DNA from: Armatimonadota bacterium
Lineage (GTDB): Bacteria > Armatimonadota > HRBIN16
Direction: 5' to 3'
Assembly (NCBI GenBank): GCA_049969495.1
Contig: JBMFOT010000004.1
Location: 11,906 to 75,905, forward strand
DNA length: 64,000 bases
The position numbers and the translations under genes are program-made. The notes under the pieces were generated by a model, which saw only the letters and a list, made by a program, of their open reading frames with translations, was not told where the DNA came from and searched no databases. This document shows, one piece after another, positions 391 to 35,081 of this stretch (position 1 is its first letter; every line of letters begins with the position of its first letter).

Positions 391-986
391 GGCGGGTAGA
401 GGCATTTACCATTTTGGAACTGCTCGTGGTGGTTGCTATTATCGGTGTGCTGGCGGGCATTTTGCTGGTGGCTTTCCATGCAGCCAGAGAACGTTCCAAA
501 CTCACTGCTTGCCTTTCCAACCTGCGGCAGATTGGAACAGCTCTCAGTCTCTACCGGCAAGACTACGACGGGGCTGATGCGATTGCTGGGCATGAGATGG
601 AATACTGGCAGTTGGGCTTACCTTCTTTCTCTCAGTTTGAACAGTTTCGCAGGCAGTACGTGAAGGATGATAGGGTATTCCATTGCCCGGGCTATTTCGG
701 CTGGATAGACCCTTTTACCTATGTGGGGTTGCCCCTGCAACGTGTCAACACCTACCAGTGGTGTGTGGACAGTGAGGACATGCCTGTTCCTGAGGAGCAG
801 CGATTTGCGAAGAGGGTCGCCAGAATGGGAGACCGGGTTGTGGTGTGCATTTGTGAGGTGCATAATCCTCCCGCGTCCCTTGATGCCCCAAGTACCGCGC
901 GCAAGCGCGTGAACATCCTGCGTCTCAGCCAGCAAGTGGAATCAAAGTGGGTGCCACTCCGCTCCACAGTCGTGGAGGGTTGGTAA
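387..986 (+). CDS. prepilin-type N-terminal cleavage/methylation domain protein (DUF1559-like pseudopilin family)
   Basis: N-terminus MRRVEAFTILELLVVVAIIGVLAGILL is a class III (type IV pilin) signal with the invariant E after the cleavage site. ATG 387 overlaps the upstream stop (ATGA). Confidence 0.7.
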   Translation: MRRVEAFTILELLVVVAIIGVLAGILLVAFHAARERSKLTACLSNLRQIGTALSLYRQDYDGADAIAGHEMEYWQLGLPSFSQFEQFRRQYVKDDRVFHCPGYFGWIDPFTYVGLPLQRVNTYQWCVDSEDMPVPEEQRFAKRVARMGDRVVVCICEVHNPPASLDAPSTARKRVNILRLSQQVESKWVPLRSTVVEGW

Positions 987-8655: not shown

Positions 8656-8841
8656 CTAGTACAAGTGCGCGGTCATTCCATTGCAGAGAAGCACACCATT
8701 GACGGATAAAGTCGTTCCCATCCTCTGTACGATTTGAATGTCGAGTTGGGAGTAATCCTGTTTCAGCTTTTGGAGCTCTGCTGCCCACTGCGGATTTTTC
8801 TCCACAAAGGTATAGCTATCGAACTTCTTTTCGATGTCCAA
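8656..8841 (-). CDS. small hypothetical protein in low-GC segment (TTG start)
   Basis: 61-codon ORF with protein-like composition inside a roughly 48% GC island. No SD. Weak support. Confidence 0.2.
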   Translation of the reverse strand: MDIEKKFDSYTFVEKNPQWAAELQKLKQDYSQLDIQIVQRMGTTLSVNGVLLCNGMTAHLY

Positions 8842-8970
8842 CGCAACCCGGGGACTGCCTTCGCAGGATTCGTGCCAACGCCAGTTGGCTTCGCCACAGG
8901 AGAACGGCTTCAGCTGTGCGGGGACACCTCAACAGCTCGGACGGAGCCTCGCCCTCTCATTAGAAAAGGT

Positions 8971-9000
8971 TGACAAATGTCTGCTTTTCTGCTGTACAGG
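8971..9000 (+). promoter_or_regulatory. candidate promoter of the phage head module
   Basis: TTGACA at 8971-8976 followed by a weak -10 (TGTACA). It lies 20-45 nt upstream of the SD GGAAGGAGGTGA and ATG 9019. Confidence 0.25.
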
Positions 9001-9018
9001 GTGGAAGGAGGTGAGCGC

Positions 9019-9793
9019 GATGGAAGTGGAGCGGGAGGCGAAGCTGTTTGAAGCCGGCTCCTATCCGGACAAGGGGCTGGAAGTGAGCGAGGAGCAGTTG
9101 CAGGCGCTGGTGGAGGGCTTTACCGCGCCGGTTCCGCTGATGGTAGAGCATCTGTCGCAGGGATGGCAGATTGGGCAGTTGAAGCGGTTGTGGCGACGGG
9201 GCAAGGAGCTGTTCGGGCGGCTGACCCTGCTGCCGGAGGCGGAGGCTCTGCTCAAACGGTTGGGCGTTCGTGGCATTAGTGTCGCGGTGACGCCTGATGT
9301 GAAGCGGATTGTAGAGGTATCGGTGACGGCGACGCCGCGGGTGGCGGATGCGCGCCTGCTCAGTGCGGGCGCGTTAACCTTTTCTGGGGAGATACTTTTG
9401 ACGGAGGTGACCGCGTTGGAACAGGATATGGAGGCGTTGCGCCAGCGGGCGGAGGCGGCAGAGTTTGCCCTGCGCGAGCGGCAGGTAGAGGAGACGCTGC
9501 AACGATGGCTTCGGCAGGGAAAGCTGACGCCGGCGACGCGCGAGATGGCGAAGACGCTGCTTCTGGAGGGTACGCAGACGGTGACCTTTGCAGGCGGTAG
9601 TGTAAGCATGGCGGAGGTGTTCGCCCGTTTTGTGGAGGCGTTGCCGCCGATGGTGCGTTTTGGCGAGGTGGCGCCGGCGGGAGAACCGGAGCATACACTG
9701 AGCGCGGAGGAGGAGGCGTTCCTGCGCAAGTACTGGGGCGACCTTTCGCCTGAGCGGATTGCCCGTTATCTGTCGGAAGGAAGGAGGCGATAG
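9019..9793 (+). CDS. phage head maturation protease/scaffold protein, Mu gpI-like
   Basis: SD GGAGG 8 nt upstream. Sits directly upstream of DUF2190 and gpT genes. C-terminal helical region carries a GKLTPATREMAKTLL motif reminiscent of Mu gpI. Confidence 0.55.
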
Positions 9794-9796
9794 GAG

Positions 9797-10210
9797 ATGG
9801 CAGCGTTGACGAGCGCGTACGACCCACAGGACAAGCCGGGCGAGCTGGTGAGCTACAAGGTAGGGGCGAACACGGTGATTTATAAAGGCGCGCTGGTGAG
9901 CGTGCGCAGCGATGGCTACGCCTACCCCTCGCGCAGCGGCACCGGTAGCGACGTGTTCGTAGGGGTGGCGTTCGAGAGCGTGGACAACACAGGCGGTGCG
10001 GCGGGCGCGAGGTCGGTGCGCGTGTGGAAGAGCGGCACTTACGTGTACAACGGCAGTGGCTTCACACAGGCGAGCGTGGGGCAAGCGATGTACGCAGCGG
10101 ACGACAACACGCTGACCACCACTTCTACCAACAACCAGCTGGTGGGCTACGTGGTAGAGGTGCTTTCGGCGACGCAGGCACGCATTCGGATCGACAACGC
10201 GGTACGGTAA
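9797..10210 (+). CDS. DUF2190 family phage protein (capsid cement/decoration-like)
   Basis: VFVGVAFESV...GTYVY...LTTT.TNNQLVGYVVEV...ARIRI pattern typical of DUF2190 proteins, which sit between protease and major capsid genes. Confidence 0.55.
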   Translation: MAALTSAYDPQDKPGELVSYKVGANTVIYKGALVSVRSDGYAYPSRSGTGSDVFVGVAFESVDNTGGAAGARSVRVWKSGTYVYNGSGFTQASVGQAMYAADDNTLTTTSTNNQLVGYVVEVLSATQARIRIDNAVR

Positions 10211-10224
10211 GAGGAGGATAGACG

Positions 10225-11151
10225 ATGCCAGCGATTACACGGAGCGAGATGGGCGTCCTGCTGGAGGCAGGTTTGCGTGCGGACTTCTTCGAGGCGTATC
10301 GGCGGCAGGTGGAGTCGGCGATTTACCCGCAGATTGCAACGGTGATTCAGACCGAGCTGCCCGCGCAGAAGTACGGGTGGCTGGGCAGTGTACCCGCGAT
10401 GCGCGAATTTGTGGACGAGCGCATGCCGAAGGGCTTGCGAGTAACTCATTACACCATTCAGGACACGGTGTGGGAGAGCACGATAGCGGTGGAGAGGCGC
10501 GCCCTGGAGGATGAGCAGATCGGAGCCATCCGGCTACGGGTGCAGGATTTGGGGCGCGAGGCGGCACGGCACAAGGACTATCTGGTGGTGAAAGCGTTGC
10601 TAGACGGGTTCAGCCAGGCGTGCTATGACGGTCAACCGCTCTTCTCGAATGCACACTCGGAGGGCGAGAGCGGCGCGCAGAGCAACGTCACTACCCAACC
10701 GCTGAATCCAGACAGCTTGCAGAGTGCCATCTCCACCATGATGCTGTTCAAGGACGACCAGGGCGTGCCTCTGGGCATTCTGCCGGATACGTTACTGGTG
10801 GGCCCGCGTTTGCGCTGGGCGGCGATGGAGCTGCTGGAGTCGCAGGTGGTAGTGGTTAAGGCGGGCACAGGCGACAACACGCCGTATCGCAACGTGCTGC
10901 AAGGTGCGCTGAGGCTGGTGGTCAGTCCGTATATCACGGGCAATCAGTGGTTTGTGCTGGACACCAGTCGGGCGGTGCGCGCGGTAATCCTGCAGGAGCG
11001 GTCGGATGTGCCGGTAGAGTTCTCGGCATTAGAGGACCCGTCGGTGAGCGAGAGCGTGTTTTTGCGGGACGTGGTGTATTACGGTGCGCGAGCGCGTTAC
11101 GGCGTGGGCTACGGCTTGTGGCAGACCGCTTACGGCAGCAACGCGAGCTAA
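10225..11151 (+). CDS. Mu-like prophage major head subunit gpT
   Basis: Size and sequence features match the Mu gpT family (PF10124-like), including the C-terminal ...YYGARARYGVGYGLWQ region. Strong SD GAGGAGG. Followed by a GC-rich palindrome. Confidence 0.8.
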   Translation: MPAITRSEMGVLLEAGLRADFFEAYRRQVESAIYPQIATVIQTELPAQKYGWLGSVPAMREFVDERMPKGLRVTHYTIQDTVWESTIAVERRALEDEQIGAIRLRVQDLGREAARHKDYLVVKALLDGFSQACYDGQPLFSNAHSEGESGAQSNVTTQPLNPDSLQSAISTMMLFKDDQGVPLGILPDTLLVGPRLRWAAMELLESQVVVVKAGTGDNTPYRNVLQGALRLVVSPYITGNQWFVLDTSRAVRAVILQERSDVPVEFSALEDPSVSESVFLRDVVYYGARARYGVGYGLWQTAYGSNAS

Positions 11152-11164
11152 CCCTCACCCCCTG

Positions 11165-11192
11165 CCCCTCTCCCAACGCTGCGGGAGAGGGG
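11165..11192. terminator. REP-like palindrome after the major capsid gene
   Basis: CCCCTCTCCC-AACGCTGC-GGGAGAGGGG, a perfect 10-bp stem. Same family as the elements at 13822-13851 and 32983-33012. Confidence 0.5.
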
Positions 11193-11195
11193 TGT

Positions 11196-11310
11196 TCGCT
11201 ATGCATGAAGAAGGCACTGAGAAAAATACTTCGTGTCTTAGTGGTGAATAACCACAAAGGCACTAAGGCACTAAGAAAAATACTTCGTGTCTTTGTGTCT
11301 TAGTGGTGAA
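11196..11310. repeat. low-GC imperfect tandem duplication (about 45-bp unit ending TAGTGGTGAATAA)
   Basis: AAGGCACTGAGAAAAATACTTCGTGTCTTAGTGGTGAATAA and AAGGCACTAAGAAAAATACTTCGTGTCTTTGTGTCTTAGTGGTGAATAA, joined by CCACAAAGGCACTAAGG. Confidence 0.6.
11205..11303 (+). CDS. possible 32-aa cationic repeat peptide (MKKALRKILRVLVVNNHKGTKALRKILRVFVS)
   Basis: ORF spanning the tandem repeat. Only a weak SD. Could be non-coding. Confidence 0.15.
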   Translation: MKKALRKILRVLVVNNHKGTKALRKILRVFVS

Positions 11311-11323
11311 TAAGAGGTGCATA

Positions 11324-11569
11324 ATGGACATCGGCATTCAGGTTTTGACGCTTATCGGGGCGATGGTGTCGGCGCAGTGGGCGTTTGCGCGGTTGACGTT
11401 GCGCGCGCTGGAGCGCATCATTCAGGCACAGGAGCAGACGCTTCGGGAGCACCTGACACGGCTGGAACAGGCGGTGCGGGGAAACACGGAGGCGCTTCAG
11501 GCTCTGAAAGAAACTCTTGCCTGCGTAAGGTTAAGCCATGCACGCTGGGCAGCAAGCAGAAAGGAGTGA
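11324..11569 (+). CDS. hypothetical small protein (hydrophobic N-terminus plus coiled coil)
   Basis: SD AAGAGG 6 nt upstream of ATG 11324. 81 aa. Confidence 0.45.
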   Translation: MDIGIQVLTLIGAMVSAQWAFARLTLRALERIIQAQEQTLREHLTRLEQAVRGNTEALQALKETLACVRLSHARWAASRKE

Positions 11570-11571
11570 GG

Positions 11572-12639
11572 ATGTTGCGATTCACCGATACAATGGGACG
11601 ATGGCAGGCGGTGCGGAGTGACGCGCCTTTTCCGGTAGCGGGTGGGCAGGTTCTGCACTGGCTGAACGACGACTTCAACACCGTGCTGGATACCGATATG
11701 TGGGAGGTGGTGTCGGGCAGCCCCGCTGTTGCCAGCGGCGAGCTGACCGTCGCCAGCGGCGTCGTGTTGCTCAGCAAAAAGTCGTTCCAGCCGCCATGCC
11801 TGATTGAATGCGTGGAGATGATGACCGCCCGCGCATCAACCGATAACTTCCGCATCGGCTTCTACACGGATGACAACAACCTCGTGGAGTGGAGCGCGAC
11901 GGGCACGGATCAAGCCCGCATGGACGCGCGGATGTCGGCGGGCGGTGTGGTCTCTGACCAGACGATTATCAACGTGGGTGCAGCGAACCTCTCCTACCGT
12001 CTTGCTTCCATCTACGTCGGACTGGGTGAAGCGGTCTGGGCGTATAGGACTATCAACAGCCAACTCGTACGCAATGAGGTGTATCGGATCGCTGAGAGCG
12101 GTATTCCTTCCGGCCCGTTCCGCGTCCGACTGGCAGGTCTTGCAGGCACCAGCACGTTGAAGGTGCATCGCGTGACGGCGTATCAGCTGGCGGAAACCGT
12201 TCCCCCTGGCGCGTTGGGTCATCACGTGGACGGGATGGCGTTGCCGGTCAGGCTGACCAACACGCCGTTTGCCACACAACCTTCCACCACCGCACTGGGT
12301 AGCATTCAGTCCACCACCGATACCTTCTCGTCACTGGCAGTGGGCACGGTGGGGACTGGCAGCAACCGCGCCTTCTACTCGGAGCAGTGCCACATCCAAG
12401 CGCATTTTCAGGGCGACCAACCGTTTAGCGCGTGGGTGGAAGCGCAGATCGATGGCACGAACTGGCAGGTGGTGTGGTATGGTCAGAGCATTGACGCCAC
12501 GACCGATGCGGTGCTTCGGTACTACGCGCAGAGCCCCATCATGCAGATATATGGTTCACGCAACTTCCGCGTGAAGGTGAAGAACACGGGAGCCGCTGCG
12601 GGCACCTTCAGGGGCACATTGGTAGCGACGATGCTATAG
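11572..12639 (+). CDS. hypothetical beta-rich phage-associated protein
   Basis: SD AAGGAG. ATG 11572 lies 2 nt after the upstream stop. 355 aa. No recognised motif. Confidence 0.5.
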   Translation: MLRFTDTMGRWQAVRSDAPFPVAGGQVLHWLNDDFNTVLDTDMWEVVSGSPAVASGELTVASGVVLLSKKSFQPPCLIECVEMMTARASTDNFRIGFYTDDNNLVEWSATGTDQARMDARMSAGGVVSDQTIINVGAANLSYRLASIYVGLGEAVWAYRTINSQLVRNEVYRIAESGIPSGPFRVRLAGLAGTSTLKVHRVTAYQLAETVPPGALGHHVDGMALPVRLTNTPFATQPSTTALGSIQSTTDTFSSLAVGTVGTGSNRAFYSEQCHIQAHFQGDQPFSAWVEAQIDGTNWQVVWYGQSIDATTDAVLRYYAQSPIMQIYGSRNFRVKVKNTGAAAGTFRGTLVATML

Positions 12640-12641
12640 GG

Positions 12642-12824
12642 GTGATGGTGATGAAGCGCATTCTGAAGCCGCTGATTATCCGGTGGTTAGATGAGCGGGC
12701 GTTGCGGCTGCCGCACTCGGTTAGGGAGAAGCTGGCGGATCGGTTGCAGGTAGAGGTCGCGCTCATCACCGCCGTAGAGGAAGCGATACGCGAGCAGATC
12801 ATCAAGAGCATACAGGAGTGGTGA
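12642..12824 (+). CDS. hypothetical small protein
   Basis: Tightly packed after the upstream gene. 60 aa. Confidence 0.35.
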   Translation: MMVMKRILKPLIIRWLDERALRLPHSVREKLADRLQVEVALITAVEEAIREQIIKSIQEW

Positions 12825-12827
12825 GAG

Positions 12828-13034
12828 ATGAGGGCATACGTGAAGGCTATCGGCACGAGCAACGTCACCCTCGTGGACATAGACAGCGGGGAGCGGTTCA
12901 GCGCGGGACTGGCTGCCATCCAGAAGCTGTTCGGTGTGGAGCTGAAGGAGGGCGACGTGTGGGAGTTCTACGCGAGCAAGCGTGACGACATCGCGGAGAA
13001 CTTCAAGCGGTGGCAGCTGGTTCAGCAGGCGTAG
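12828..13034 (+). CDS. hypothetical small protein
   Basis: SD GGTGAGAG upstream. 68 aa. Confidence 0.4.
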   Translation: MRAYVKAIGTSNVTLVDIDSGERFSAGLAAIQKLFGVELKEGDVWEFYASKRDDIAENFKRWQLVQQA

Positions 13035-13047
13035 GAGGTAGCGGTGG

Positions 13048-13467
13048 ATGGCGATTACGGTCACACGAGAGGCGGTGAAGCGCACCGCGGCGGTATCGTC
13101 CACCGCTTACGATGCCCAGGTCGATGCGCTCATTACCGACCTGGTTCCGGTGATAGAGTACACGCTGTCGTCGGACGCGCTGGCGGATAGCACGCTGGAG
13201 CCGGTGCTCAGTCGGGGCGCGACGGAGATTATCGCGGGCGAGTTTCTGGCACAGCGGTTGCGCGAGGAGGGGGCCACCGAGGCGTTCGAGGCGGGCGGCG
13301 TACGGGTGGGTGAAAGCCCTCAATCGCGCGCCGATTTGGGCGACCCGTACGGCCTGATTCAGCGTGGGTGGGCGCGGCTCATGCCTTTCCTGAAGCCGGT
13401 ATACACGCAATCCACCACGCGCAATCGGGAGCGGCAGGTTTCAGAGCAGACGATGCTGGGCTGGTAG
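13048..13467 (+). CDS. phage head-tail connector candidate (gp36/DUF1320-like size and position)
   Basis: 139 aa, directly downstream of the head genes. Assigned by size and synteny only. Confidence 0.35.
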   Translation: MAITVTREAVKRTAAVSSTAYDAQVDALITDLVPVIEYTLSSDALADSTLEPVLSRGATEIIAGEFLAQRLREEGATEAFEAGGVRVGESPQSRADLGDPYGLIQRGWARLMPFLKPVYTQSTTRNRERQVSEQTMLGW

Positions 13468-13782
13468 GTGAGGGAGATGTCGGCGCGAGCAGAACGGCTG
13501 AGGTCGCTGGTGAAGCGGCATGGTGAAGATGTGGTAGTGAACGGTACGCGCACGGTGCGCATGGTGGTGTTCGTGGCAACGAGCGGGCTGTTGCGCAGTC
13601 TGTTTACCGACAACGACCTACTAACTTTCAGCCGCCCGATGTGGGCAGGGGTGGTGGCGGCGGACGAAGTGCTGAACGAGGGCGATAGCATCTCCCGCGA
13701 CGGAGTGAGCCACACAGTGCGGAGGGTGATCACCCTGAAAAGCGGAAATGCCCCCGCTGTGAAGGTAGCAGTGTGGTGGTAG
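13468..13782 (+). CDS. phage head-tail joining protein candidate
   Basis: 104 aa. ATG overlaps the upstream stop. Assigned by position in the module only. Confidence 0.35.
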   Translation: MREMSARAERLRSLVKRHGEDVVVNGTRTVRMVVFVATSGLLRSLFTDNDLLTFSRPMWAGVVAADEVLNEGDSISRDGVSHTVRRVITLKSGNAPAVKVAVWW

Positions 13783-13851
13783 GGGCAACCCCCTGTGGTT
13801 GCCCCTATCCCCCTGTGGTTGCCCCTATCCAACCATGCGACGGGAGAGGGG
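13782..13851. terminator. cluster of REP-like palindromes between convergent genes
   Basis: GGGGCAACC-CCCTGT-GGTTGCCCC hairpin, a tandem copy of CCCTGTGGTTGCCCCTATCC, then CCCCTATCC-N11-GGGAGAGGGG. Confidence 0.5.
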
Positions 13852-13858
13852 CGTTCAA

Positions 13859-15361
13859 TTATTCATCTCCGACTTCCCCGAAGTTGCGCACCAGAATGCC
13901 GAAATCGAACAGGGTGATTTCGCCGTCGCCGTCGAAGTCGGCGGTGGGTTCAAAGCCCTCCTCTCCCTCCAGTTTACCGAACGCGCTGACCAGTTTGCCG
14001 AAATCGAACAGCGTCACCTCGTTATCGCCGTCGGCGTCGCCGTTGGCGAGGTTCAGCGTCAGAGTTCCTGCCGGCACGGTGATACCCGTCAGCACGCGGC
14101 GCAGGGAGCGGTCTGCCTTGAAGGCAAGGGTATAGGTTGTCGGCGTGAGGATGAGGTCAAACGTGCCATCGGCGTTCAGTGTCGGACTGAAAGTGAGCAG
14201 GGTTTCGCCCGTTGCTGCCGAGCGCACTTCCACCTGCAGAGGCAATCTGGAGTAGTCGCCCGTGTATCCGTCCATGTTCACAGTGACGGCAGTAGGTACC
14301 GGTGTCATCAGGAAGGCACGGGTGATGCCGTTGTGCGCACCGTAGCCGGTAATCTGTCCGAAGTTGTTGATGGCACGCGCTTCGTTAAGCACCCAGCCGG
14401 AACCTGCAGGCAGGAGGTCGTTGAGGTTGCGAAGCACGCCGTCTACCCACAGGAAGGCACGCAAGGAGACGTTGTCCGATAGATAGGAGTGCCCTACCAC
14501 GTGCCCGAGTTGATTGATACCGAAGGCGCGTCCTGTGTTGCCCCCCAGTGTGCCCAGATCGATGACGGTGGTACCTTCCCACAGTACGGGACGGGTGAGG
14601 GTGCTGGTTCCCACGCGCGTGTTGGAGAAGCCCACCACCTGCCCTCGGTCGTTGATGCCGAAGGCCTCGGAGATCGTGCCGTTTGGCAGATAGGGCAGGG
14701 CATCAGTGAGCGGGTTGATAGCGGCGTAGGGCTGTGTACGGAAAGCGCGTCGGCTGCCTGCCGAGCCGGAGCCTCCCACCACCTGTCCGAGGTTGTTGAT
14801 GTCGTTGGCTAGGCTGATTTCGTCGGGATTGCCGGTGATGTTACCGAGGTCAAACCAGTCCCACCAGCCGCCCGGGTTGTAACTCCAGCGGAAGGCGTGG
14901 TACACCCCGTCGGGGTTGATAGCAGACCATCCCACGACGTGTCCGGTGTTGTTAATGCCGTACGCTCTGCCCTGCCAGGTGTTGGGGATAGGACGCAGGT
15001 CTACCATCTCGCCCGGGTCTGCCTGGCGGTTGCCGTTAAGGTCTTGCCAGATAAAAGGATGGCGTGCCTGCGCGGTGTCGGTCCAACCCACGACCTGCCC
15101 CAAGTCGTTCACGTCGCGCCCTTCGCTGGCAGTGCCCGACAATACCCCCAGGTCAATCATCACACCACCTGTCCAGAAGAAGGCGTGTCCATCCGACCAT
15201 CCGACGACTTCGCCGAGGTTGTTGATGCCGTAGCCGCGGCTTTGCCCGTTCGCGGTGATCGCGCCCAGGTCGGTGATGGTATACTGTGCGTGGGCGACGG
15301 AGAGGCTTAGCGCGAAGGAGAACGCGCAGGCGAACACGTAAAGGGTTGGTAGGCGAACCAT
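13859..15361 (-). CDS. secreted HAF-repeat protein with C-terminal CarboxypepD_reg-like plus dockerin module
   Basis: Signal peptide. Repeated GINNxGxVVGWS/GINDRGQVVGFS units (HAF family). C-terminal DADGDNEVTLFDFG...DFDGDGEITLFDFGILVRNFGEVGDE double EF-hand (dockerin type I-like). Confidence 0.75.
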   Translation of the reverse strand: MVRLPTLYVFACAFSFALSLSVAHAQYTITDLGAITANGQSRGYGINNLGEVVGWSDGHAFFWTGGVMIDLGVLSGTASEGRDVNDLGQVVGWTDTAQARHPFIWQDLNGNRQADPGEMVDLRPIPNTWQGRAYGINNTGHVVGWSAINPDGVYHAFRWSYNPGGWWDWFDLGNITGNPDEISLANDINNLGQVVGGSGSAGSRRAFRTQPYAAINPLTDALPYLPNGTISEAFGINDRGQVVGFSNTRVGTSTLTRPVLWEGTTVIDLGTLGGNTGRAFGINQLGHVVGHSYLSDNVSLRAFLWVDGVLRNLNDLLPAGSGWVLNEARAINNFGQITGYGAHNGITRAFLMTPVPTAVTVNMDGYTGDYSRLPLQVEVRSAATGETLLTFSPTLNADGTFDLILTPTTYTLAFKADRSLRRVLTGITVPAGTLTLNLANGDADGDNEVTLFDFGKLVSAFGKLEGEEGFEPTADFDGDGEITLFDFGILVRNFGEVGDE

Positions 15362-15471
15362 TTGGTTTGTCGCTCCTTTCTTGCAGTGAAACTTGCCCGG
15401 ATAGGGGTGGGCGAAATCTATGCCGAGCTGGCGAAGCTATCATAGCACTGGACACTTGGATTTGTCAAGCG

Positions 15472-16749
15472 ATGGCGAATACAGAAATCGTACGTGCTGA
15501 AGATATATGGGCGGGATACGGTGCAACGCCTGTATTAAAGGGCATCCACCTGAGTATCTCGCGCGGTGAGTTTGTGGGCTTGCTGGGACCGAATGGCAGC
15601 GGCAAGTCCACCCTGTTGCGCGTGCTCAGCGGGGTGTTAAAGCCGCAGAGAGGACAGGTGTGGCTGAACGGACAACCGCTGGCTCAGCTGCGGGCGAAGG
15701 AGGTAGCGCAGAGGCTGGCGTTTGTGCCCCAGCGTGAGGAGGTGGCGTTCGGTTTCACCGCGTGGGAGGTGGTATTGTTAGGGCGTGCGCCGTACATCGG
15801 CTGGTGGGGCAAAGAGCGCGCGGAGGACACGCAGGCGACTCGGCGAGCGATGGAGCGCACGGACAGCCTGTCGCTGGCGGAGCGGACTTTCGGCACGCTG
15901 AGCGGCGGAGAGCGTCAACGGGTGGTGCTGGCGCGTGGGTTAGCGCAAGAGACGCCTCTGCTGTTTCTGGACGAACCGTTGACGCACCTGGACGTAGCAC
16001 ATCAGGTGAGCACGCTTTCGCTGCTGCGCCAGCTCAATCGTGAAGAGGGGTTAACGATACTGGCGGCGCTGCACGACATCAACCTCGCTTCGGAGTTCTG
16101 CGACAGGCTGGTTGTGCTCCGGCAGGGGCAGCTGGTGGCGGACGGCACTCCCCCAGAGGTCATCACGCCTGCTTTGCTGGCGCGGGTGTTCGGTTTAGAT
16201 GCGTGGGTACGGGTGAATCCGGCGACGGGACGTCCGCATGTGTTGCCGCGCACGTTGCAGCACGTGGAGGCGCAGGCGGGCAACGGCAGGCGGGTGCATG
16301 TGGTCTGTGGCGGGGGTACGGGTGCGGGGTGGATTAGCACACTGGCGCGAGCGGGATGGCATCTTTCGGTAGGGGTGCTGCATCTGCTGGACAGCGACGA
16401 GGAGGTGGCGCAGGAGCTGGGCGCAGAGGTGATTACGGAGGCGCCGTTCACGCCCATCTCAGCCGAGAGCCTTGCCTTACTGCGCGAGGCACTGGCAAAG
16501 GTGGAGGCGATACTCGTTGCGCCGGTAGCGTTTGGATACGGCAACCTCGCGAACCTGCAGGCAGTGGAGGAGGTGCAACGGGCAGGCAAACGGGTGCTGC
16601 TGGCGGACTGCAACTGGCAGGAGCGCGACTTTACCGGCGGGCAGGCGTTGGAGATGATAGAGCGGCTGAAGGCGAACGGGGCGCAGGTGGTTGATACGCC
16701 GGAGGAGGCGCTGGCGGTGCTGGAGACACTTTCAACGGATGAGAGGTAG
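15472..16749 (+). CDS. ABC transporter ATP-binding protein (FecE/FepC/BtuD-like) fused to an uncharacterised roughly 165-aa C-terminal domain
   Basis: Walker A GPNGSGKST, signature LSGGERQRV, Walker B LLFLDEP, H-loop ALHDIN. The C-terminal domain carries a glycine-rich VHVVCGGGTGAG motif. No SD before ATG 15472. Confidence 0.75.
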   Translation: MANTEIVRAEDIWAGYGATPVLKGIHLSISRGEFVGLLGPNGSGKSTLLRVLSGVLKPQRGQVWLNGQPLAQLRAKEVAQRLAFVPQREEVAFGFTAWEVVLLGRAPYIGWWGKERAEDTQATRRAMERTDSLSLAERTFGTLSGGERQRVVLARGLAQETPLLFLDEPLTHLDVAHQVSTLSLLRQLNREEGLTILAALHDINLASEFCDRLVVLRQGQLVADGTPPEVITPALLARVFGLDAWVRVNPATGRPHVLPRTLQHVEAQAGNGRRVHVVCGGGTGAGWISTLARAGWHLSVGVLHLLDSDEEVAQELGAEVITEAPFTPISAESLALLREALAKVEAILVAPVAFGYGNLANLQAVEEVQRAGKRVLLADCNWQERDFTGGQALEMIERLKANGAQVVDTPEEALAVLETLSTDER

Positions 16750-16752
16750 CAT

Positions 16753-17850
16753 ATGGTGTTTTCGCAACTATGGCGTCGTGTAAGGCGGCGCGGACTGGAC
16801 AGGGAGCAGGCGGCGGTGGAACCCATCGCCGCCCTTCGTTTTGGTGGCGCAGGGGATGCGGACGACCTGCTGCGCACGCGCGGGGAGCGGGTGTACGAGG
16901 AGATGCTCACCGACGCGCAGGTGCAGTCTGCGCTCACCACCAAGAAGTTCGGCGTGCTGGACGCGGACTGGCAAATCGTGCCCGGTGGCGAGGACGAGCG
17001 ATCACAACGGGCGGCGGAGCTGGTGCGCTTTGCGCTGGGGCAGCTGCGCGGTTCGGTGACCCGCATCCTGCTGAACGCGCTGGACGCCTTAGCGCACGGC
17101 TATGCGGTGCAGGAGATTAACTACACCCTGTGCGAGCAGGAGCCGTGGCGCGGGATGGTGGTATGGCAGAGCATCAAGAGCAAACCGCCCCGCCTGTTTC
17201 GGCTGGAGACGGACGAGTTCCGAAACCTGAGGGCATTATACCTGCGACTGCCGGGCGGTGAGGAGAAGCCCCTGCCTGCCGAGAAGTTTGTGGTGTATTC
17301 GTACAACGGCAGTTACGAATCGCCGACGGGGCGTAGTGACCTACGCGCGGCATACAAACACTGGTGGGCGAAGGGATTGCTGTTGAAGTTCTGGCTGTTA
17401 TCGCTGGAGAAGTTCGGTGCGCCGACGGTCAAAGGGGTGGTGCCGCGCCATGTGCCCGAGGCGGAGCGGCGGGAGCTGTTAGAGGTGTTGGATCGTATCC
17501 AGCAGGAGACGGCAGTGGTGCTGCCGGAGGACGTGCAGATTGAGTTGTTAGAGGGCAAGTCACCTGTTGGCGCGGCGTATCTGCAGGCGGTGCAGTTTCA
17601 CAACAAGGAGATTGCGCGGGCGATATTGGGGCAAACGCTGGCGACCGACGAAGGGATGCGCACCGGCTCGCTCGCACTGGGCAAGGTGCACTATCGCGTG
17701 ATGCAGCTCTATTTTCGCGCCTTGCGCAGGGACCTGGCTGAGCAGGTGATGGAGGAGCAGCTGTTCCGTCGGCTGGTAGAGCTAAACTTCGCCGACGCGA
17801 AGACGCCGCGATTCGTATGGGTGGAGAGAGAGGTTGCAGGGGAGGGGTAG
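16753..17850 (+). CDS. Mu gp29-like phage portal protein (DUF935), short form
   Basis: AILGQTLATDEGMRTGSLALGKVHYRV and KHWWAKGLLLKFWLLSLEKFGAPTVKG motifs characteristic of DUF935. 365 aa, against roughly 450-520 for typical family members. Confidence 0.6.
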   Translation: MVFSQLWRRVRRRGLDREQAAVEPIAALRFGGAGDADDLLRTRGERVYEEMLTDAQVQSALTTKKFGVLDADWQIVPGGEDERSQRAAELVRFALGQLRGSVTRILLNALDALAHGYAVQEINYTLCEQEPWRGMVVWQSIKSKPPRLFRLETDEFRNLRALYLRLPGGEEKPLPAEKFVVYSYNGSYESPTGRSDLRAAYKHWWAKGLLLKFWLLSLEKFGAPTVKGVVPRHVPEAERRELLEVLDRIQQETAVVLPEDVQIELLEGKSPVGAAYLQAVQFHNKEIARAILGQTLATDEGMRTGSLALGKVHYRVMQLYFRALRRDLAEQVMEEQLFRRLVELNFADAKTPRFVWVEREVAGEG

Positions 17851-17963
17851 GCATCCTCGTTACTTTACCGTTTTTTGTCCAATCCCCGCAAAGTGCGCAA
17901 TAGGTATGGCACTCCTCTTGCACTATTTCAGGGTGGAAACACCTTATGAAGGAGGAGTGTCTG

Positions 17964-18665
17964 ATGAGTCGATGGATTTTGAGCCTTGCAGTTGGGCTTG
18001 CGCTTGCCAGCAGTGCCTGCGCAGTGACCATCAGCCTGCACAGTTACGATACCAGCTACACCGCCGATACCGTTCTGGACGGCAGCACCCGTTGGGTCTA
18101 TATCGGCGCAATACGCCTGAATATTACGGGAGACCCCTTGCCAAAGGAAGCGTGGTGTGTGGACCTGAAGCAAGCGGTGGCGAGTGGTTCCTGGGACGCC
18201 GTGCAAAAGAACACCATCGCTACTGCGCTGGACGATGGGCGTCGTGCGGACTGGGCGATGGGCGCGTTGTGGAAGAACCGCCCCTCCGCTATCGATGCAC
18301 GGGGGCGTGCTGCGCTACAATTAGCGATATGGGAGGCGTTGTACGATGGTTTCGGCGCGAATCCGTTCAGCAGTGGACGCTTTCGCGTGACGAACGTGTT
18401 CAACGGCACAAACCGCAGCTCTACCGATAGCCTGACCCTGACGCTGGCGCAGAGCTATCTGCAGGCATGGAACGGTCTGGGCGTTCCGAACGGCGTTCTG
18501 TACGACGCTCCCTTGCCCGGTGCGGGCACACGCTCGCAGGATTTCATCCTGACACCGGGAGGGGGATTTACCCCTCAAGCGGTTCCTGAAGGGGGGACGC
18601 TTTCGCTGACGCTAGCCGGGTTGCTGGGTGTAGGCGGTCTGTTGAGGCGGCGGATAATGATGTAG
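17964..18665 (+). CDS. PEP-CTERM sorting domain secreted protein
   Basis: SD GAAGGAGG 8 nt before ATG 17964. Signal peptide. C-terminal VPEGGTLSLTLAGLLGVGGLLRRR, which is a PEP-like motif, a TM helix and an Arg cluster. Confidence 0.7.
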   Translation: MSRWILSLAVGLALASSACAVTISLHSYDTSYTADTVLDGSTRWVYIGAIRLNITGDPLPKEAWCVDLKQAVASGSWDAVQKNTIATALDDGRRADWAMGALWKNRPSAIDARGRAALQLAIWEALYDGFGANPFSSGRFRVTNVFNGTNRSSTDSLTLTLAQSYLQAWNGLGVPNGVLYDAPLPGAGTRSQDFILTPGGGFTPQAVPEGGTLSLTLAGLLGVGGLLRRRIMM

Positions 18666-20719: not shown

Positions 20720-23700
20720 TCATCTGTCTGCTTGTAGCTTAAAATGATAGTCGCCGGAGCCCACTTCCACTATCATCCAATCGCCATCATCACGTGCGCT
20801 TCTCACGCCGGGTACTCTGGGCACAAACGCGCCGTTGCGCCATACCTTGCCTTCCGCCTCCGTCAGGATGGGGTGTGCGATGCCCAGCTTGGGGATGTAT
20901 ACCGTTGCGGAGCTGTTGGCAGGCACGATGACACTCAGCAGAAAAGCGTCGGGACGCTTCTCCCAGCGTACCCCTACCCTGCCGCGCACGGTATCTACAG
21001 AGGCTTGCGCCCAGCGCAGGTCACCAACAGGATGCGGGCGTACGATGAAATGTTCCCAATCGCCTTGTGAAGCATCGGGCTGAATGCCCGCCAGCGCCTC
21101 ATAGAACCATGCGCTAACCAGCCCGAACGCAGGGTGGTTGTGCGAGTTCATACCCGGGCCGACCTCATACTTCCACAGCTCCCAGATGGTGGTCGCGCCC
21201 ATTCGCACCATGTAGCCCCAGCTGGGGTAGGTATCCTGTGAGGCAACTAGATAGGCGATGTCCGCGCGTCCCAGCATGGTCAGCGTATCCAGCAGGTAGC
21301 GTGTGCCAATGAACCCCGTGCTGAGGTGTCCTTTGTGGTTCACGGTAATGTCGTGTACCACACTGTCCAGCACCTTCTGCCGGTGTTCCTCCGGCACAAT
21401 GCCCAGATAAAGCGGGAAGATGTTGGAGAACTGGCTGCCGTTGCCGTACTGACCGCTCTGCGCGTTCCAGAAGCGTTTATTAAAGGCGTCGGCGATGCGT
21501 TCGCACAGGGCGCGGTACTCTCGCTCGTCGGTGTGTTTGCCCAGCACATGCGCGATGTCCGCCAGCACCTTCACGCTCAGGTAGTACGTGCCTGTGGAGA
21601 TAAGGTCTTTGGGCGTTTCCACCACCGCCACCCAATCGCCGTAGTTGTTGCGGGTGAGGATACAGTTCTCTCCTGCCTCCCGGCGCAGCATCTCCACGTA
21701 GCGCTTCATGCCCTCGTAGTGTTCTTCTAGCAGATATGTTGCACCCGTGTGGCGATACATATCCCAGCAGATGAATAGATATGCCCCTGCCCACTGCGGG
21801 TCGCCCGGGTTAGTGCCCCATACGTGGGGCACGGTGTCGGGAATGCGCCCGTCCTCGCCCTGCGCGTCGGCGATGTCGCGTAGGAACTTCACGTAGGCGG
21901 ATTCGGCGGTGAAGTTGTACAAGCCCATGTTGGCGGTCATCTGGGCATCGCCCATCCAGCCCTGTCGCTCGTCGCGCTGGGGACAGTCGGTGGGGATGCT
22001 GTGCCAGTTGGTGCGGTACCCCCACTGGGCGTTGCGCTGAATCTGGTTGAGTAGTTCGTTAGAGCACTCGAACTGCCCGCGTTGTGTAAAGGAAGTATGT
22101 ACCACTCTTCCTTCAATATCTTCCGGCTTCAGGGTGCCCGGGTAGCCCTCTACCTGCACGTAGCGGAAGCCGTGGTAGGTGAAGCGTGGCTCGTAAACCT
22201 CTATCCCCTTGCCTTTCAGGATGTAGGTATCGGTCGCTCTGGCGGAGCGCAGGTTTTGCTGGTTCACCAGCCCGTTCTCGAACAGCACTTCGGCGTGTTT
22301 GAGAGTCACGGTAGTGCCTGCGCTGCCTTTCACTTGCAGACGGCACCAGCCGGAGAAGTTCTGTCCGAAATCCACCACGAACACGCCCGGTCGCGGCTCG
22401 GAAATCCATTTGGGCTTGAGGGTCTGCGTCACCTTGATGGGCGGCATCATTTGCGCCGAGAGCGTCGCGCCTGGCGGGTCACTGAGCAATACCGGTTGCC
22501 ATTCCCCCTGCCGTTCGGCGAAGCCGGGTTCGCACCAGCCGGGTTGCTCCAGCCGAGCGTCGTACGTCTCGCCATGATACAGGCTGTTGTCCAGAACGGG
22601 ACTCTTTGCCCAGCGCCATTCGCCGTCGCTGAGGATAATTTGCTCGGTGCCGTCGGTGTATTCGATATGCATCTGTAGCAGCAAATGGGGTTTGCCCTTC
22701 CACCAGCCGTTGCCCAGTAGTGCGCCCACACAGTTATCGCCCCGTTTCAGCAGAGGAGTGACATCGTAGGTGCTGTAGTAGATGCGCTTGTGAAAGTTCG
22801 TGTAGGGCGGGTCCAGCACACGGTCGCCTACCCTCTTGCCGTTGAGATAGAGCTCATAATAACCCAAACCGGTGACGTAGGCGCGAGCGCGTTTGACCCT
22901 GCCTGTCACCCTGAACTCGCGTCGCAGCATGGGAGCGTACGTATCCGACGGACGGGATTCGCGCACCCCATCGGTGAGCATCGCCCGCGCCCAGTCGTTC
23001 TCCTCGATGCTGTCCATGTTCCAGCTGTCGGTGGTTACGGTAGCGTAGAGGGCGAGGTTTGTCCCTGCCGCGTCCAACACTTCCATCTCCGCCAGCGCCG
23101 CCAGCGGGCGCGTATCGGCGGGGTGGTGTAGTTTGGTGATAACCAGTCGCACATAGCGCGCCTTCTGATCGCCCACGTCGATGGCAAACGGTTTTGCGCC
23201 CGGATTGGGCACGTCGGCTTGCGTGTAGTCGGCGAGAAGGCGCGAACGGGTGAAGTCGGGCTCGTCGCTGGCTTCGAGGCGGAAGCGCACGGGAAAGCCG
23301 AAGCCGGGTTCGTCGCGCACCCAGTTATGCGGGCGGGCGGGGTAAAGCACCACCCGCCGGAACTGCACCGACCGGCGCAGGTCTAACTGCACCCATTTGG
23401 TCACGTCCACGCTGTCCGCAAACTGTGAGTGCCAGCCGTTTCCACCCGCTCGGGGCACGGCAATCCACTTCGCCTGCCACTCGTCGGGGTGCAGCAGAGC
23501 GGTTTCGAAGGTGGCAGGCTGGCTGTACGCACTGGCGACACCGTTGTGGTCCCATATCCGCACGCGCCAGTAGTAAGTGGTTCTGCTCTGCAGAGGTTTG
23601 CCCTCGTAGCGGACATGCAGACTCTGCGAGGATGCCACCTTACCGCTATCCCACATATCCGCTTTGCCATCGCGAAGCAGCTCCGGTCTGCTGGCGACCT

Positions 23701-32045: not shown

Positions 32046-33092
32046 ATGGAGCGTATCGTTCTGGCTTCGCCGCGTGGGTTTTGCGCCGGGGTGTCGTACG
32101 CGATAGAGGTGCTGGACCTGGCGATTAAGGCATACGGCACACCGATATACATGCGCCACGCGATTGTACATAATGAGCATGTGGTGCGCTCGTTCGAGCG
32201 ACGCGGGGTCATCTTTGTGGAAGAGGTATCGGAAATCCCGCGCGGCTCAACGGTTGTTCTCAGCGCGCACGGTGTGTCGCCACAGGTACGCCGCGAAGCG
32301 GCAGAGCGCAACTTGCGCGTCGTCGACGCCACCTGTCCCCTGGTCTCCAAGGTGCACCGCGAGGTACAGCGTTTTGCTTCGCAGGGCTATCACATCCTTT
32401 ACATCGGGCACGCTGGACATGTAGAAGCCTTGGGCACGATGGGACACGCCCCCGGGCAGATTACGCTGGTGCAGACGGTAGAAGACGCCGAGCGTGTACA
32501 AGTGCCGGACGGCAAGCTTGCAGTTGCCACGCAGACCACCCTGAGCGTGCACGAGGTGGAACGTGTGATGGCGGTGCTCAGACGACGTTTCCCGCACCTC
32601 GAAACACCTCCCAAAGAGGACATCTGCTATGCGACCACCAACCGCCAGAAAGCGGTCAGGGAGCTGGCAAAAGTGTGCGACCTGATACTGGTCATCGGCA
32701 GCCGCTCCAGCAGCAATTCCAACAGGCTGCGCGAGGTAGCAGAGGAGGCGGGCGTGCCCGCGTATCTGTTGCTGGAGCCCGAAGAGGTGCTTCCTGAATG
32801 GCGCACCGACTACCGCTCGGTAGGCGTTACCAGCGGTGCCTCCACGCCGGAAAGCTCGGTGGAGGCAATCATCGGCGAACTGCTGAAAGAGCATGAGCAC
32901 GTTCCCGTGCAGACCCTGGAGACCACCCGGGAGGACATCGCTTTTATCCCCCCGCGCACGTTGATTGCCAGCGCGAGTGTATCCCCCTCTCCCGAAGCTT
33001 CGGGAGAGGGGGCAAGGGGGCGAGGGTTACTCGTCCCCCATCGCGCCGAAGTTGCGAACCAGAATGCCGAAGTCAAACAGGGTGACCTCTAA
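32046..33092 (+). CDS. ispH: 4-hydroxy-3-methylbut-2-enyl diphosphate reductase, with a roughly 40-aa C-terminal extension
   Basis: SPRGFCAGV, ATCPLV and TTNRQ motifs with three conserved Cys. The ORF reads through the palindrome at 32983-33012. Confidence 0.85.
   Translation: MERIVLASPRGFCAGVSYAIEVLDLAIKAYGTPIYMRHAIVHNEHVVRSFERRGVIFVEEVSEIPRGSTVVLSAHGVSPQVRREAAERNLRVVDATCPLVSKVHREVQRFASQGYHILYIGHAGHVEALGTMGHAPGQITLVQTVEDAERVQVPDGKLAVATQTTLSVHEVERVMAVLRRRFPHLETPPKEDICYATTNRQKAVRELAKVCDLILVIGSRSSSNSNRLREVAEEAGVPAYLLLEPEEVLPEWRTDYRSVGVTSGASTPESSVEAIIGELLKEHEHVPVQTLETTREDIAFIPPRTLIASASVSPSPEASGEGARGRGLLVPHRAEVANQNAEVKQGDL
32983..33012. terminator. perfect 30-nt palindrome between convergent ispH and the lectin-dockerin gene
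   Basis: CCCCCTCTCCCGAAGCTTCGGGAGAGGGGG. Same family as the element at 11165. Confidence 0.5.
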
Positions 33093-35081
33093 ATCTCCGT
33101 CCAAATCGGCATCGGGGTTCCAGTTGCTATCGCCGGGCATGGAGCCGAACGCCGCTACCAGCCCACCGAAGTCAAACAGGGTGACCTCGTTGTCGCCGTC
33201 GATATCGCCGTTGGTGAGCGAGACATCCTGCCCGGTGACTTCCTCCGCCAGCCCAAGCGTAACACCTGTCAGGTTCACACGCAACCAGTGGCTGGCTTTG
33301 AAGGAAACCTCGTAGGTGCCCGGCTCTACCCACAGCGAGTAGTCGCCGTTGCGGTTGGTGAAGACGGTGCGGGTCTCTTCGCCACCGCCCTCCTTGCGCA
33401 AACGCACAGAGATGGGAACCAGCGATGGGTCACCTCCGTAGTCGCCCAGTGCGATATTTCCGCGGATCACCGCCAGCTTGCCATACAGCACAAAGGCGCA
33501 GTTCCAGCGGTCCTTCGGGTCTTGTCCCGCTTTAGGCTGGATGCTGTTTGGTGCGTACACCTCGAAGCCGGGGTTGGGGAAGGAGCGTGAACGCCACATG
33601 AAGTCCTGCTCTATTTCGGAGGGTTGGAGGTCGGCGCCGGTCAGCCACGCGAGCGCGCTGAAACCGGTAGTGTTGCCTGCACCGATGCCGTCCGAGTAGA
33701 TGGTCAGATAGTAATCACCTCCGGGCAGGAAGATGTCCAGGTTAGAGTAGCGGTGCAGCCAGTCCTCGCCGCCCGGAATGCGCGGGTCATTCACGCCAGC
33801 GGAGTATGCGCCCAGCACGCCCTGAGCCACCTGGTCGCCATCTACCGGTCGATTCAAGCCGGTACGTCGCCAGATGATGTAGCGCACGTTCGCACCCTGG
33901 TAACCATCCACCACAAACCAGTCGGCATCCACCTGGCTGATGACCGCACCGCCTGGCGGGATGCGGAAGGGAATGGCGGACCATCGCTGGGGCAGCGTCG
34001 CCGAATAGTTACCAGAGATGTAGCCCAGGTACACCTCCTGGTTGTTGGAGATGACCGTCTTCGGTGCGCCCGTGTCCCACACCACGCTTTTCGTGGACTC
34101 GTAGACCGCTGTGACGATGTGGTTGTCGTCCAGCGTGATCTGCAGTTCGGGGTCGCCGGAGTAGTCGACGCCGTCAATCTGCCATTTCTCGAACTCGTTA
34201 CCGTCGGGCGCAAAAGTTGCCGCGTTCAACGTAACAGGTGTGCCTGCCGGATACACGCGCACGAAGGGGGTCACCCCATTGCCGGTGCCCACCAGGTCGG
34301 CAGGTGCAGAGACGCTAACGCCCTCGTAGGGGTTGTCGCCCAGAATAATCAACGTGCGGGCAGGCGAGGTGAACGGCGTCAGCGTCCAGTTGAGCACATC
34401 GGTGTTTTCATAGGCGAACACCGTGCGTCCACTAAAGCCTACCCATGCGGAGCCGGAGCTGTCGAGCACGCCGGCGGCTGCGAGGTCAACAGCGAGTGTC
34501 AGCACCGCTTCGTTATCCACAGAGACGGTCAGCCAGCCTCCTGCATAGTCAATGCGTGCGGTGTGCACGCCTTCGTCATTAATGTTGATGGTGTTGGGGA
34601 AGAGGCTGGTGTATGTGCTCAGCGCGCCGTTGACATACACAGCAACCACGTTGGGGAAGTCGCCCTCTGGCAGACTGAAGAGAGTGGCAAAGCTCACGGT
34701 CACGGTTCCCGCGGTGCCCCTCTCATCAACGTTCAGGTTCGTCGAAACGTTCTGGATGTGGAATCCCAACCCGTGGCCCAGACCGTCCTCAGGCGACTGT
34801 CCATGCAACTGGAACCGGAAGGTGGTGGAGAAACCGTTTGTCAGGTTCTGCTTGGTGGTGTACCAGGCAGATCCCTGCTGATTCATGCGGTTTTCGGTCA
34901 GGCGGAGCCGGTTCGCGGTGACCTGGGCTGTACCCACCAGATTCAATCCTACCGAAGAACTGAAATCGGGGTAGTTAATCTGCGCGAAGGCGGGCACAAC
35001 TAGAAACGTAGCCAGCACCCAGCACAGCAAACCAATTGCATACCGGGTAGCACGAGACATCTGGATACCTCCTCCTTTCAT
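33027..35081 (-). CDS. secreted L-type-lectin-like protein with C-terminal CarboxypepD_reg-like plus dockerin module
   Basis: Signal peptide. N-terminal legume-lectin-like beta-sandwich signature. C-terminus DIDGDNEVTLFDFG...DLDGDLEVTLFDFGILVRNFGAMGDE. Confidence 0.7.
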   Translation of the reverse strand: MKGGGIQMSRATRYAIGLLCWVLATFLVVPAFAQINYPDFSSSVGLNLVGTAQVTANRLRLTENRMNQQGSAWYTTKQNLTNGFSTTFRFQLHGQSPEDGLGHGLGFHIQNVSTNLNVDERGTAGTVTVSFATLFSLPEGDFPNVVAVYVNGALSTYTSLFPNTININDEGVHTARIDYAGGWLTVSVDNEAVLTLAVDLAAAGVLDSSGSAWVGFSGRTVFAYENTDVLNWTLTPFTSPARTLIILGDNPYEGVSVSAPADLVGTGNGVTPFVRVYPAGTPVTLNAATFAPDGNEFEKWQIDGVDYSGDPELQITLDDNHIVTAVYESTKSVVWDTGAPKTVISNNQEVYLGYISGNYSATLPQRWSAIPFRIPPGGAVISQVDADWFVVDGYQGANVRYIIWRRTGLNRPVDGDQVAQGVLGAYSAGVNDPRIPGGEDWLHRYSNLDIFLPGGDYYLTIYSDGIGAGNTTGFSALAWLTGADLQPSEIEQDFMWRSRSFPNPGFEVYAPNSIQPKAGQDPKDRWNCAFVLYGKLAVIRGNIALGDYGGDPSLVPISVRLRKEGGGEETRTVFTNRNGDYSLWVEPGTYEVSFKASHWLRVNLTGVTLGLAEEVTGQDVSLTNGDIDGDNEVTLFDFGGLVAAFGSMPGDSNWNPDADLDGDLEVTLFDFGILVRNFGAMGDE

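Follow-up and report, generated by a model that had tools for sequence, protein, structure and literature searches.

Why should two secreted proteins that have no other region in common end in the same module? This question is raised by a stretch of 64,000 nucleotides from a genome of the bacterial phylum Armatimonadota (assembly GCA_049969495.1, contig JBMFOT010000004.1; in the following, the window means this whole stretch). A HAF-repeat protein of 500 amino acids (13859..15361, minus strand) and a lectin-like protein of 684 amino acids (33027..35081, minus strand) share a C-terminal unit that resembles the dyads of X-module and dockerin (XDoc) of cellulosomes. To our knowledge, cohesin-dockerin biology is known almost entirely from Firmicutes cellulosomes, and many dockerin-like modules elsewhere have no assigned role. 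We propose here, with a confidence slightly better than even, that the module is a non-cellulosomal docking tag of the XDoc type, which would serve Ca2+-dependent surface display via a putative receptor and act in parallel to the PEP-CTERM system.

Both proteins are predicted to be exported. The HAF protein (stop codon 13859-13861; orthologue HRbin16_00041) begins with a putative Sec signal peptide of residues 1-25 (15287..15361, minus strand), recognized by eye from a hydrophobic stretch and a following AxA-type site (cut between SVAHA and QY). The lectin-like protein, which has syntenic orthologues in the related loci L002, L003, L004, L021 and L068, begins with a signal peptide of residues 1-33 as predicted from the sequence (34983..35081, minus strand; cut between VPAFA and QI), and its true start may be Met8. 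As described in an earlier note on this DNA, the N-terminal regions are unrelated and the C-termini alike: BLASTP aligns residues 366-500 of the HAF protein with residues 548-684 of the lectin-like protein (52% identity, E 3e-34) and returns no significant alignment upstream of the module. The HAF protein carries seven HAF repeats (TIGR02913, 177 bits, E 4e-53), the criterion being multiple repeats of ~39 residues above the TIGR02913 cut-off, and the N-terminus of the lectin-like protein has a weak legume-lectin-like match below the Pfam cut-off (Lectin_L-type_dom, E 4e-8). The note's figure of about 65% identity over about 110 residues is adequate for the dockerin half (69% global identity over the last 65 residues) and too high for the last 110 residues (54%); over 137 residues the identity is 51%. 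The module alone spans 13862-14266 in the HAF gene and 33030-33440 in the lectin-like gene, and a six-frame motif scan of the window detects these two copies and no others. An exact look-up of both proteins in the contig collection returned no record.

Each copy consists of two parts. The first is an X-module-like beta-sandwich, located at 14045..14266 in the HAF gene (minus strand, residues ~366-439; sub-threshold CarboxypepD_reg match and alignment with the other copy) and at 33213..33440 in the lectin-like gene (minus strand, residues 548-623; CarboxypepD_reg E 1.2e-6, strands in the AlphaFold2 model and Foldseek alignment). The latter contains the invariant KASHWLR motif of the family, of which KADRSLR in the HAF protein is a variant, and both CarboxypepD_reg matches stay below the Pfam gathering cut-off (18.5 and 29.2 vs 32.3). 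The second part is a dockerin, located at 13862..14044 (minus strand; tail FGEVGDE; motif scan and sub-threshold Dockerin_1 match) and at 33030..33212 (minus strand; tail AMGDE; motif scan, AlphaFold2, Foldseek and family consensus). The HAF protein has DADGDNEVTLFD and DFDGDGEITLFD as its EF-hand-like Ca loops, with a helix after each, and the lectin-like protein has the Ca loops DIDGDNEVTLFD and DLDGDLEVTLFD with the helices LFDFGGLVAAFG and LFDFGILVRNFG; in both proteins GDE is directly followed by the stop codon. Recognition of the loops was based on D or N at positions 1, 3 and 5, D at position 12 and a subsequent helix. Both copies have the layout of type I dockerins, with two tandem loop-helix segments of ~22 residues and loop starts 33 residues apart.

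The predicted fold places the module in a known structural class. Residues 538-684 of the lectin-like protein, modelled by AlphaFold2 from an alignment of 70 sequences, form one compact unit (mean predicted local distance difference test, pLDDT, 97.6; predicted template modelling score, pTM, 0.89). The ten best Foldseek matches of this model in the PDB are all XDoc chains from type II cohesin-XDoc complexes (XDoc matches include 4WI0_B, 2B59_B, 5G5D_B, 4FL4, 3KCP, 4U3S_B, 5M0Y_B and 5K39_B), and the superposition covers both domains over ~152 columns with template modelling (TM) scores of 0.73-0.77, E values of 8e-10 to 2e-7 and 18-23% sequence identity. Transthyretin-like domains that match the sandwich alone rank much further down. 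Thus, according to the model, the module is an XDoc-like dyad in which a transthyretin/Ig-like beta-sandwich is packed rigidly on a dockerin with two Ca loops.

The earlier note had considered that only these two proteins might carry the module, which is not the case. A scan of one genome per species gave 408 module copies confirmed by tblastn, and the best 80 of these 408 come from nine Armatimonadota metagenome-assembled genomes (MAGs); HR16 by itself contributes 16 loci and at least 19 of the 80 copies. By a word-indexed search 141 proteins were obtained, of which those with a named source belong to hot-spring Armatimonadota MAGs (HR16, KatS3mg022/023, Ch118 and others), and a profile search of 1.84 billion representative proteins returned 207 representatives when matches were counted at E<=1e-30, rising to 4040 at E<=1e-10. 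The window DNA is ~90% identical to MAG L068 (CALJAP01) and syntenic with other MAGs. The 77 loci contain 82 module-bearing open reading frames (ORFs). The stop codon lies exactly 26 residues after the start of the second Ca loop in 77 of the 82 ORFs, and 62 of the 82 end in GDE, as both window copies do. Likewise, the profile search contributed 142 representatives not seen before, of which 121, including more distant versions from Fimbriimonadaceae, end in [FY]G..G[DE] plus 0-2 residues; most of the remaining 21 are GC-type dockerin proteins or giant proteins with a match to the beta-sandwich repeat only. The dockerin of 62 amino acids is on average 87% identical across 76 gapless copies from nine genomes and 90% identical (minimum 81%) among 19 HR16 copies, on unrelated cargo in both sets. 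Such identity on unrelated cargo is as expected if all copies fit one common receptor. A side result concerns P0150, P0183, P0197 and P0231 (Phycisphaerales and others), which carry 4-10 tandem dockerin-like repeats, some ending in GCWVP (GC-type, NF041540-like); these multi-repeat dockerins are a different dockerin-based system of other phyla.

A thermophilic Armatimonadota lineage (HR16/HRBIN16, Ch118, KatS3mg022/023 and relatives) thus fuses the module to the C-terminus of dozens of Sec-exported proteins. Without the module, the cargo of 76 locus proteins sorts into 20 N-terminal families that are unrelated to each other and each have orthologues in several genomes. Pfam identifies propellers (HAF, LVIVD, NHL, PD40), peptidases (S8 subtilases, and M23 peptidases with Ig arrays) and legume-lectin-like, PA14, CBM_4_9/fn3, CARDB and sortilin/BNR domains, and many cargo proteins have no Pfam match. 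The earlier proposal of a lineage-specific C-terminal unit on diverse secreted cargo is supported by the 408 copies in genomes, the 20 or more cargo families and the near-invariant C-terminal placement. Two further secreted proteins of 665-830 amino acids without Pfam match are encoded beside XDoc genes (L035:2924-4918 and L070:3211-5700); they contain many 'G.T.GV.G.S.S..G.GV.G.A' repeats and have a conserved C-terminal domain of ~130 amino acids in common. The window also encodes a secreted GH78 alpha-L-rhamnosidase of 1061 amino acids with an F5/8 type C domain (20720-23905, minus strand), which has neither a dockerin nor a PEP-CTERM tag.

The purpose of the module, surface localisation, is indicated by its exchange with PEP-CTERM. 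A PEP-CTERM motif scan in the flanks of module genes gave 17 matches, 15 of them with genuine PEP-CTERM-type tails; five of the six representatives scanned pass the TIGR02595 cut-off of 16, the exception being the window's own protein. Twelve of the 15 genuine PEP-CTERM proteins are paralogues of module-tagged proteins, with cargo that is 63-80% identical over its full length and often encoded by adjacent genes. At one locus, a PEP-CTERM protein (L044:6490-7140) is 80% identical over 188 amino acids to its module-bearing neighbour (L044:5377-6417). In L014, L016, L017, L018, L027 and L034, PEP-CTERM genes are convergent to module-tagged twins (63-68% identity over 225 amino acids), and module-bearing HAF proteins are 63-67% identical to a PEP-CTERM protein with six HAF repeats (L053:8124-9248). 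That the same cargo ends in either PEP-CTERM or the module supports a role in localisation or anchoring, in agreement with the PEP-CTERM-like role suggested earlier. From their sequences, the two C-terminal tags look like alternative anchors, which would give the same cargo a natural "choice of anchor". The window's own PEP-CTERM-like protein, secreted and 239 amino acids long (17946..18665, plus strand; tail VPEGGTLSLTLAGLLGVGGLLRRRIMM), reaches 15.7 bits with TIGR02595 and matches floc_PepA at E 2.4e-5, and thus represents, at a distance of 2.6 kb from the HAF-XDoc gene, the alternative anchor type of this genome. This protein also has a weak thioester-domain match, and its orthologue L042:1605-2372 adjoins another XDoc gene. 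Towards the end of the window, an exopolysaccharide locus begins (59484-63969) with a chain-length determinant of the Wzz/GNVR tyrosine-kinase type, a sugar nucleotidyltransferase and a Polysacc_synt flippase. Exopolysaccharide loci of this kind usually accompany PEP-CTERM/exosortase systems; up to the window end no exosortase gene is seen.

A docking tag of this kind could act in three steps. The N-terminal signal peptide, predicted from sequence, would drive export; the dyad would then fold around two Ca2+ ions, as suggested by the loop residues and the predicted fold; and, by analogy to type II and type III XDoc-cohesin pairs, the dockerin would, with help from the X-module, use its near-invariant helix surfaces to bind one common cell-surface receptor non-covalently and thereby hold the cargo. 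Several observations weigh against this proposal. Pfam finds no cohesin in the ~84 proteins scanned, which are the 44 window ORFs, where the earlier note had also seen no cohesin partner, and ~40 proteins from related loci and database matches, not whole genomes. A literature search on cohesin or dockerin in Armatimonadetes/Armatimonadota found nothing relevant. The structure of the dyad is predicted and not solved. Both window copies miss the gathering cut-off of Dockerin_1 (PF00404; 21.4 and 16.8 vs 22.9 bits), which some family members pass with 23.3-29.0 bits. The sandwich matches only CarboxypepD_reg, SdrD_B and NOMO1-like models in Pfam and not the cellulosomal X-module family; because of this, and of the ~20% identity to XDoc chains, the dyad may be convergent with the cellulosomal XDoc. 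The strict end 26 residues past the second Ca loop start, usually GDE, is no requirement of a dockerin and hints at an extra constraint. Finally, the organisms appear to be diderm, judged by LptC/LptD_N matches, and tagged proteins would have to cross an outer membrane, a step that the docking proposal does not account for.

A candidate for the receptor is a PEP-CTERM family of 228 amino acids (L059:10366-11049, HRbin16_02861, KatS3mg022_1955), which has 48 homologues, the named ones all from Armatimonadota, including HR16, KatS3mg022, KatS3mg023 and Ch118. Its core is predicted with pLDDT >95, and in the PDB the ScaE cohesin 2ZF9, a type III cohesin from a surface anchor, is its best structural match (E 7.6e-6), with unrelated beta-sandwiches scoring similarly. 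Further cohesins are matched (5K39_A, 2XDH, 1QZN, 5N5P, 6KGE, 3UL4; target-normalised TM 0.44-0.66), and GH123 N-domains and the p53 core reach scores like those of the cohesins. Pfam, NCBIfam and sequence and profile searches of the PDB reveal no link to cohesins, an hhalign comparison with the verified CipA cohesin (1AOH) was negative, and a profile search for distant relatives returned the same closed family with no cohesin-annotated member. The gene is invariably found beside that of proline dehydrogenase and, in KatS3mg022/023, shows no linkage to XDoc genes. It is therefore only a tentative and rather doubtful suggestion that dozens of XDoc-tagged adhesin-like proteins and peptidases dock on this single conserved receptor, fixed by PEP-CTERM/exosortase and possessing a cohesin-like fold with no cohesin sequence match. 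If true, it would link two systems of surface anchoring that research has up to now treated apart.

The module might instead be a C-terminal sorting or secretion signal that is read, and possibly removed, by a lineage-specific machine in the style of the C-terminal domain (CTD) of the type IX secretion system (T9SS) or of PEP-CTERM/exosortase, and not a binding domain. We consider this unlikely, although several observations would agree with it: the module lies at the very C-terminus of 77 of 82 locus ORFs and 121 of 142 representatives, its tail is G[DE][DE] before the stop codon, it interchanges with PEP-CTERM on paralogous cargo, and no cohesin was detected in the proteins scanned. It conflicts with the superposition of the whole unit on XDoc dyads and with the position of the module in several proteins: in the RHS/Tox-REase-7 toxin P0191 the module occupies residues 84-215 and the chain runs on after FGRAGD, and in the small KatS3mg022-type proteins P0099, P0100 and P0113 the dockerin follows straight after the signal peptide. 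Such N-terminal placement fits a binding module and not a C-terminal signal. Furthermore, the module lacks a transmembrane helix, a basic cluster and a cleavage motif and matches no sorting domain in Pfam or NCBIfam: no PEP-CTERM model (TIGR02595/PF07589) matches the module, which lacks a hydrophobic helix and ends in FG..GDE, and T9SS CTD models (Por_Secre_tail/TIGR04183-type) give no match at E<=1 in Pfam and NCBIfam. Neither window protein matches the GC-type dockerin anchor NF041540 (cut-off 29 bits). The extreme C-terminus is in the AlphaFold2 model a helical dockerin, unlike the beta-sandwich of a T9SS CTD, and no candidate processing enzyme recurs beside module genes. The contrast to cohesin-dockerin biology that the earlier note had drawn, and its likening of the module to sorting signals such as the T9SS CTD, thus find no support, given the predicted XDoc fold and the N-terminal copies. 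T9SS CTD and type I secretion system signals were rejected, given the lack of model matches and the presence of N-terminal Sec signal peptides.

About as improbable is a Ca2+-dependent binding of the dyad, without any cohesin, to envelope or matrix material other than protein, for example exopolysaccharide, peptidoglycan or an S-layer glycan. Again no cohesin was found in the scanned proteins, an exopolysaccharide locus lies in the window (59484-63969), PEP-CTERM systems are linked to exopolysaccharide production (exosortase/EpsH system), and CarboxypepD_reg-like sandwiches are common in carbohydrate-active and surface proteins. Yet dockerins solved so far bind proteins, and the PDB matches of the module are all protein complexes. 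Moreover, conservation is highest on the two helices that, to judge from XDoc complexes, would contact a cohesin, and not on a groove-like sugar site. Still less probable, in our view, is a stabilising or oligomerising Ca2+ domain that has no targeting role and was spread by domain shuffling or gene conversion. The very high identity among copies could reflect concerted evolution, and many non-cellulosomal dockerins reportedly have no known partner. Against this, a role in localisation is suggested by the systematic replacement of PEP-CTERM by the module on the same cargo, and the identity between the two window copies is just 51-69%. In nine genomes that are ~10-25% apart in DNA, orthologous cargo families have moreover retained the tag, which argues for selection and not for recent conversion. 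A classical cellulosome, with dockerin-bearing enzymes on a multi-cohesin scaffoldin, is, in line with the earlier note, very improbable despite the weak Dockerin_1 matches and the secreted GH78 rhamnosidase nearby, since none of the 28 cargo proteins scanned with Pfam has a glycoside-hydrolase domain, the GH78 protein itself lacks a dockerin, no cohesin or scaffoldin was seen in the proteins scanned, and the text of a 2024 genome survey of cellulosome-displaying bacteria does not contain 'Armatimonad' (PMC11557425).

Neighbours of the window copies are housekeeping genes (IspH, TPR protein, RibF, TruB, IF2) or genes of a Mu-like prophage, and no partner gene or operon is seen beside them. The prophage remnant occupies 8834-13782 and 16753-17850, with the HAF-XDoc gene and an ABC ATPase gene between phage genes; it comprises matches to Mu protease I (8834-9793; weak and below cut-off, E 1.1e-3), the major head protein gpT (10225-11151) and the Mu portal (16753-17850), together with small ORFs without Pfam match (13048-13467 and 13468-13782). 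In the syntenic L042 (CAKZNX) the HAF-XDoc gene is absent and its flanks are contiguous, ~186 bp apart (window 13776-15484 vs L042:4841-5027), indicating an insertion or deletion difference between related genomes. The ORF listed for the ABC ATPase starts at 15286 and overlaps the 5' end of the HAF gene (15286-15361); its real start is probably a downstream ATG (MANTEIV, ~15470). Long antisense ORFs within both module genes (e.g. 33624-35003) look like artefacts of high GC content. DUF1559/prepilin-like proteins account for 26 of 729 flank ORFs near XDoc genes. DUF1559-like pseudopilins with prepilin-type N-terminal methylation occur in the window (255-986, plus strand) and in the flanks of L006, L014, L016, L018, L020, L024, L025, L037 and others, sometimes accompanied by a LacI regulator and a large protein that resembles glycoside phosphorylases, and large polytopic DUF6785/DUF6784 membrane proteins adjoin, in several genomes, two different XDoc cargo families (L037:9069-11015, L059:7908-9941, L039, L047, L048, L060). 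Both groups were set aside as partners and judged to be likely background or synteny.

A Ca2+-dependent docking tag would be of interest beyond this locus. It would place an XDoc dyad on dozens of non-enzymatic and proteolytic surface proteins of a little-studied and mostly uncultured phylum. The module supplies a rule by which the surface proteome of these hot-spring bacteria can be predicted, and, if docking holds, could provide a thermostable orthogonal docking pair for protein engineering. Among known systems, the type II XDoc of cellulosomal scaffoldins binds type II cohesins of cell-anchoring proteins and its role is cell-surface anchoring. As in Clostridium thermocellum CipA and Acetivibrio cellulolyticus ScaA (PDB 2B59, 4WI0, 5G5D, 5M0Y, 5K39), a beta-sandwich is, as predicted, rigidly fused to a C-terminal dockerin with two Ca loops. 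However, the cellulosomal dyad is found on one scaffoldin and the Armatimonadota dyad on dozens of proteins that are not carbohydrate-active enzymes (CAZymes), and the hosts are apparently diderm Armatimonadota and not Firmicutes, with no type II cohesin or S-layer homology (SLH) anchor found in the proteins scanned. In Ruminococcus flavefaciens, non-CAZyme proteins including a peptidase bind the surface cohesin ScaE via an XDoc dyad (PMC12484212, review). This type III system (CttA, ScaB, a cysteine peptidase and sortase-anchored ScaE) is similar in the presence of the dyad on diverse cargo, in surface retention and in that the ScaE cohesin 2ZF9 is the best structural match of the 228-aa candidate. 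Its receptor is LPXTG-anchored, while the sole candidate of Armatimonadota is PEP-CTERM-anchored and no sequence relationship has been shown. PEP-CTERM/exosortase (TIGR02595) and the NCBIfam 'choice-of-anchor' families likewise place a C-terminal tag on diverse secreted proteins, and PEP-CTERM does so in the same genomes and on paralogous cargo (HAF repeats, and two families that match nothing in Pfam). In contrast to the PEP-CTERM motif of ~25 residues, which has a transmembrane helix and a basic tail and is processed by a membrane enzyme, the module is predicted to be a folded, soluble, Ca2+-binding dyad of 137 residues with an acidic end. GC-type dockerin domain-anchored proteins (NF041540), to which P0231 and P0030 give weak sub-threshold matches, also have a dockerin-like C-terminal domain that is curated as a non-cellulosomal anchor; the GC-type copies in Phycisphaerales (P0150, P0231) differ in ending with GCWVP and in having multiple copies per protein. 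Non-cellulosomal cohesin and dockerin modules (Peer et al., 2009), such as the Archaeoglobus fulgidus cohesin (2XDH), share with the Armatimonadota module the occurrence of dockerin-like modules in non-cellulolytic proteins outside the Firmicutes, but the module described here is a fixed XDoc dyad that has greatly expanded, is highly conserved and is accompanied by PEP-CTERM paralogues.

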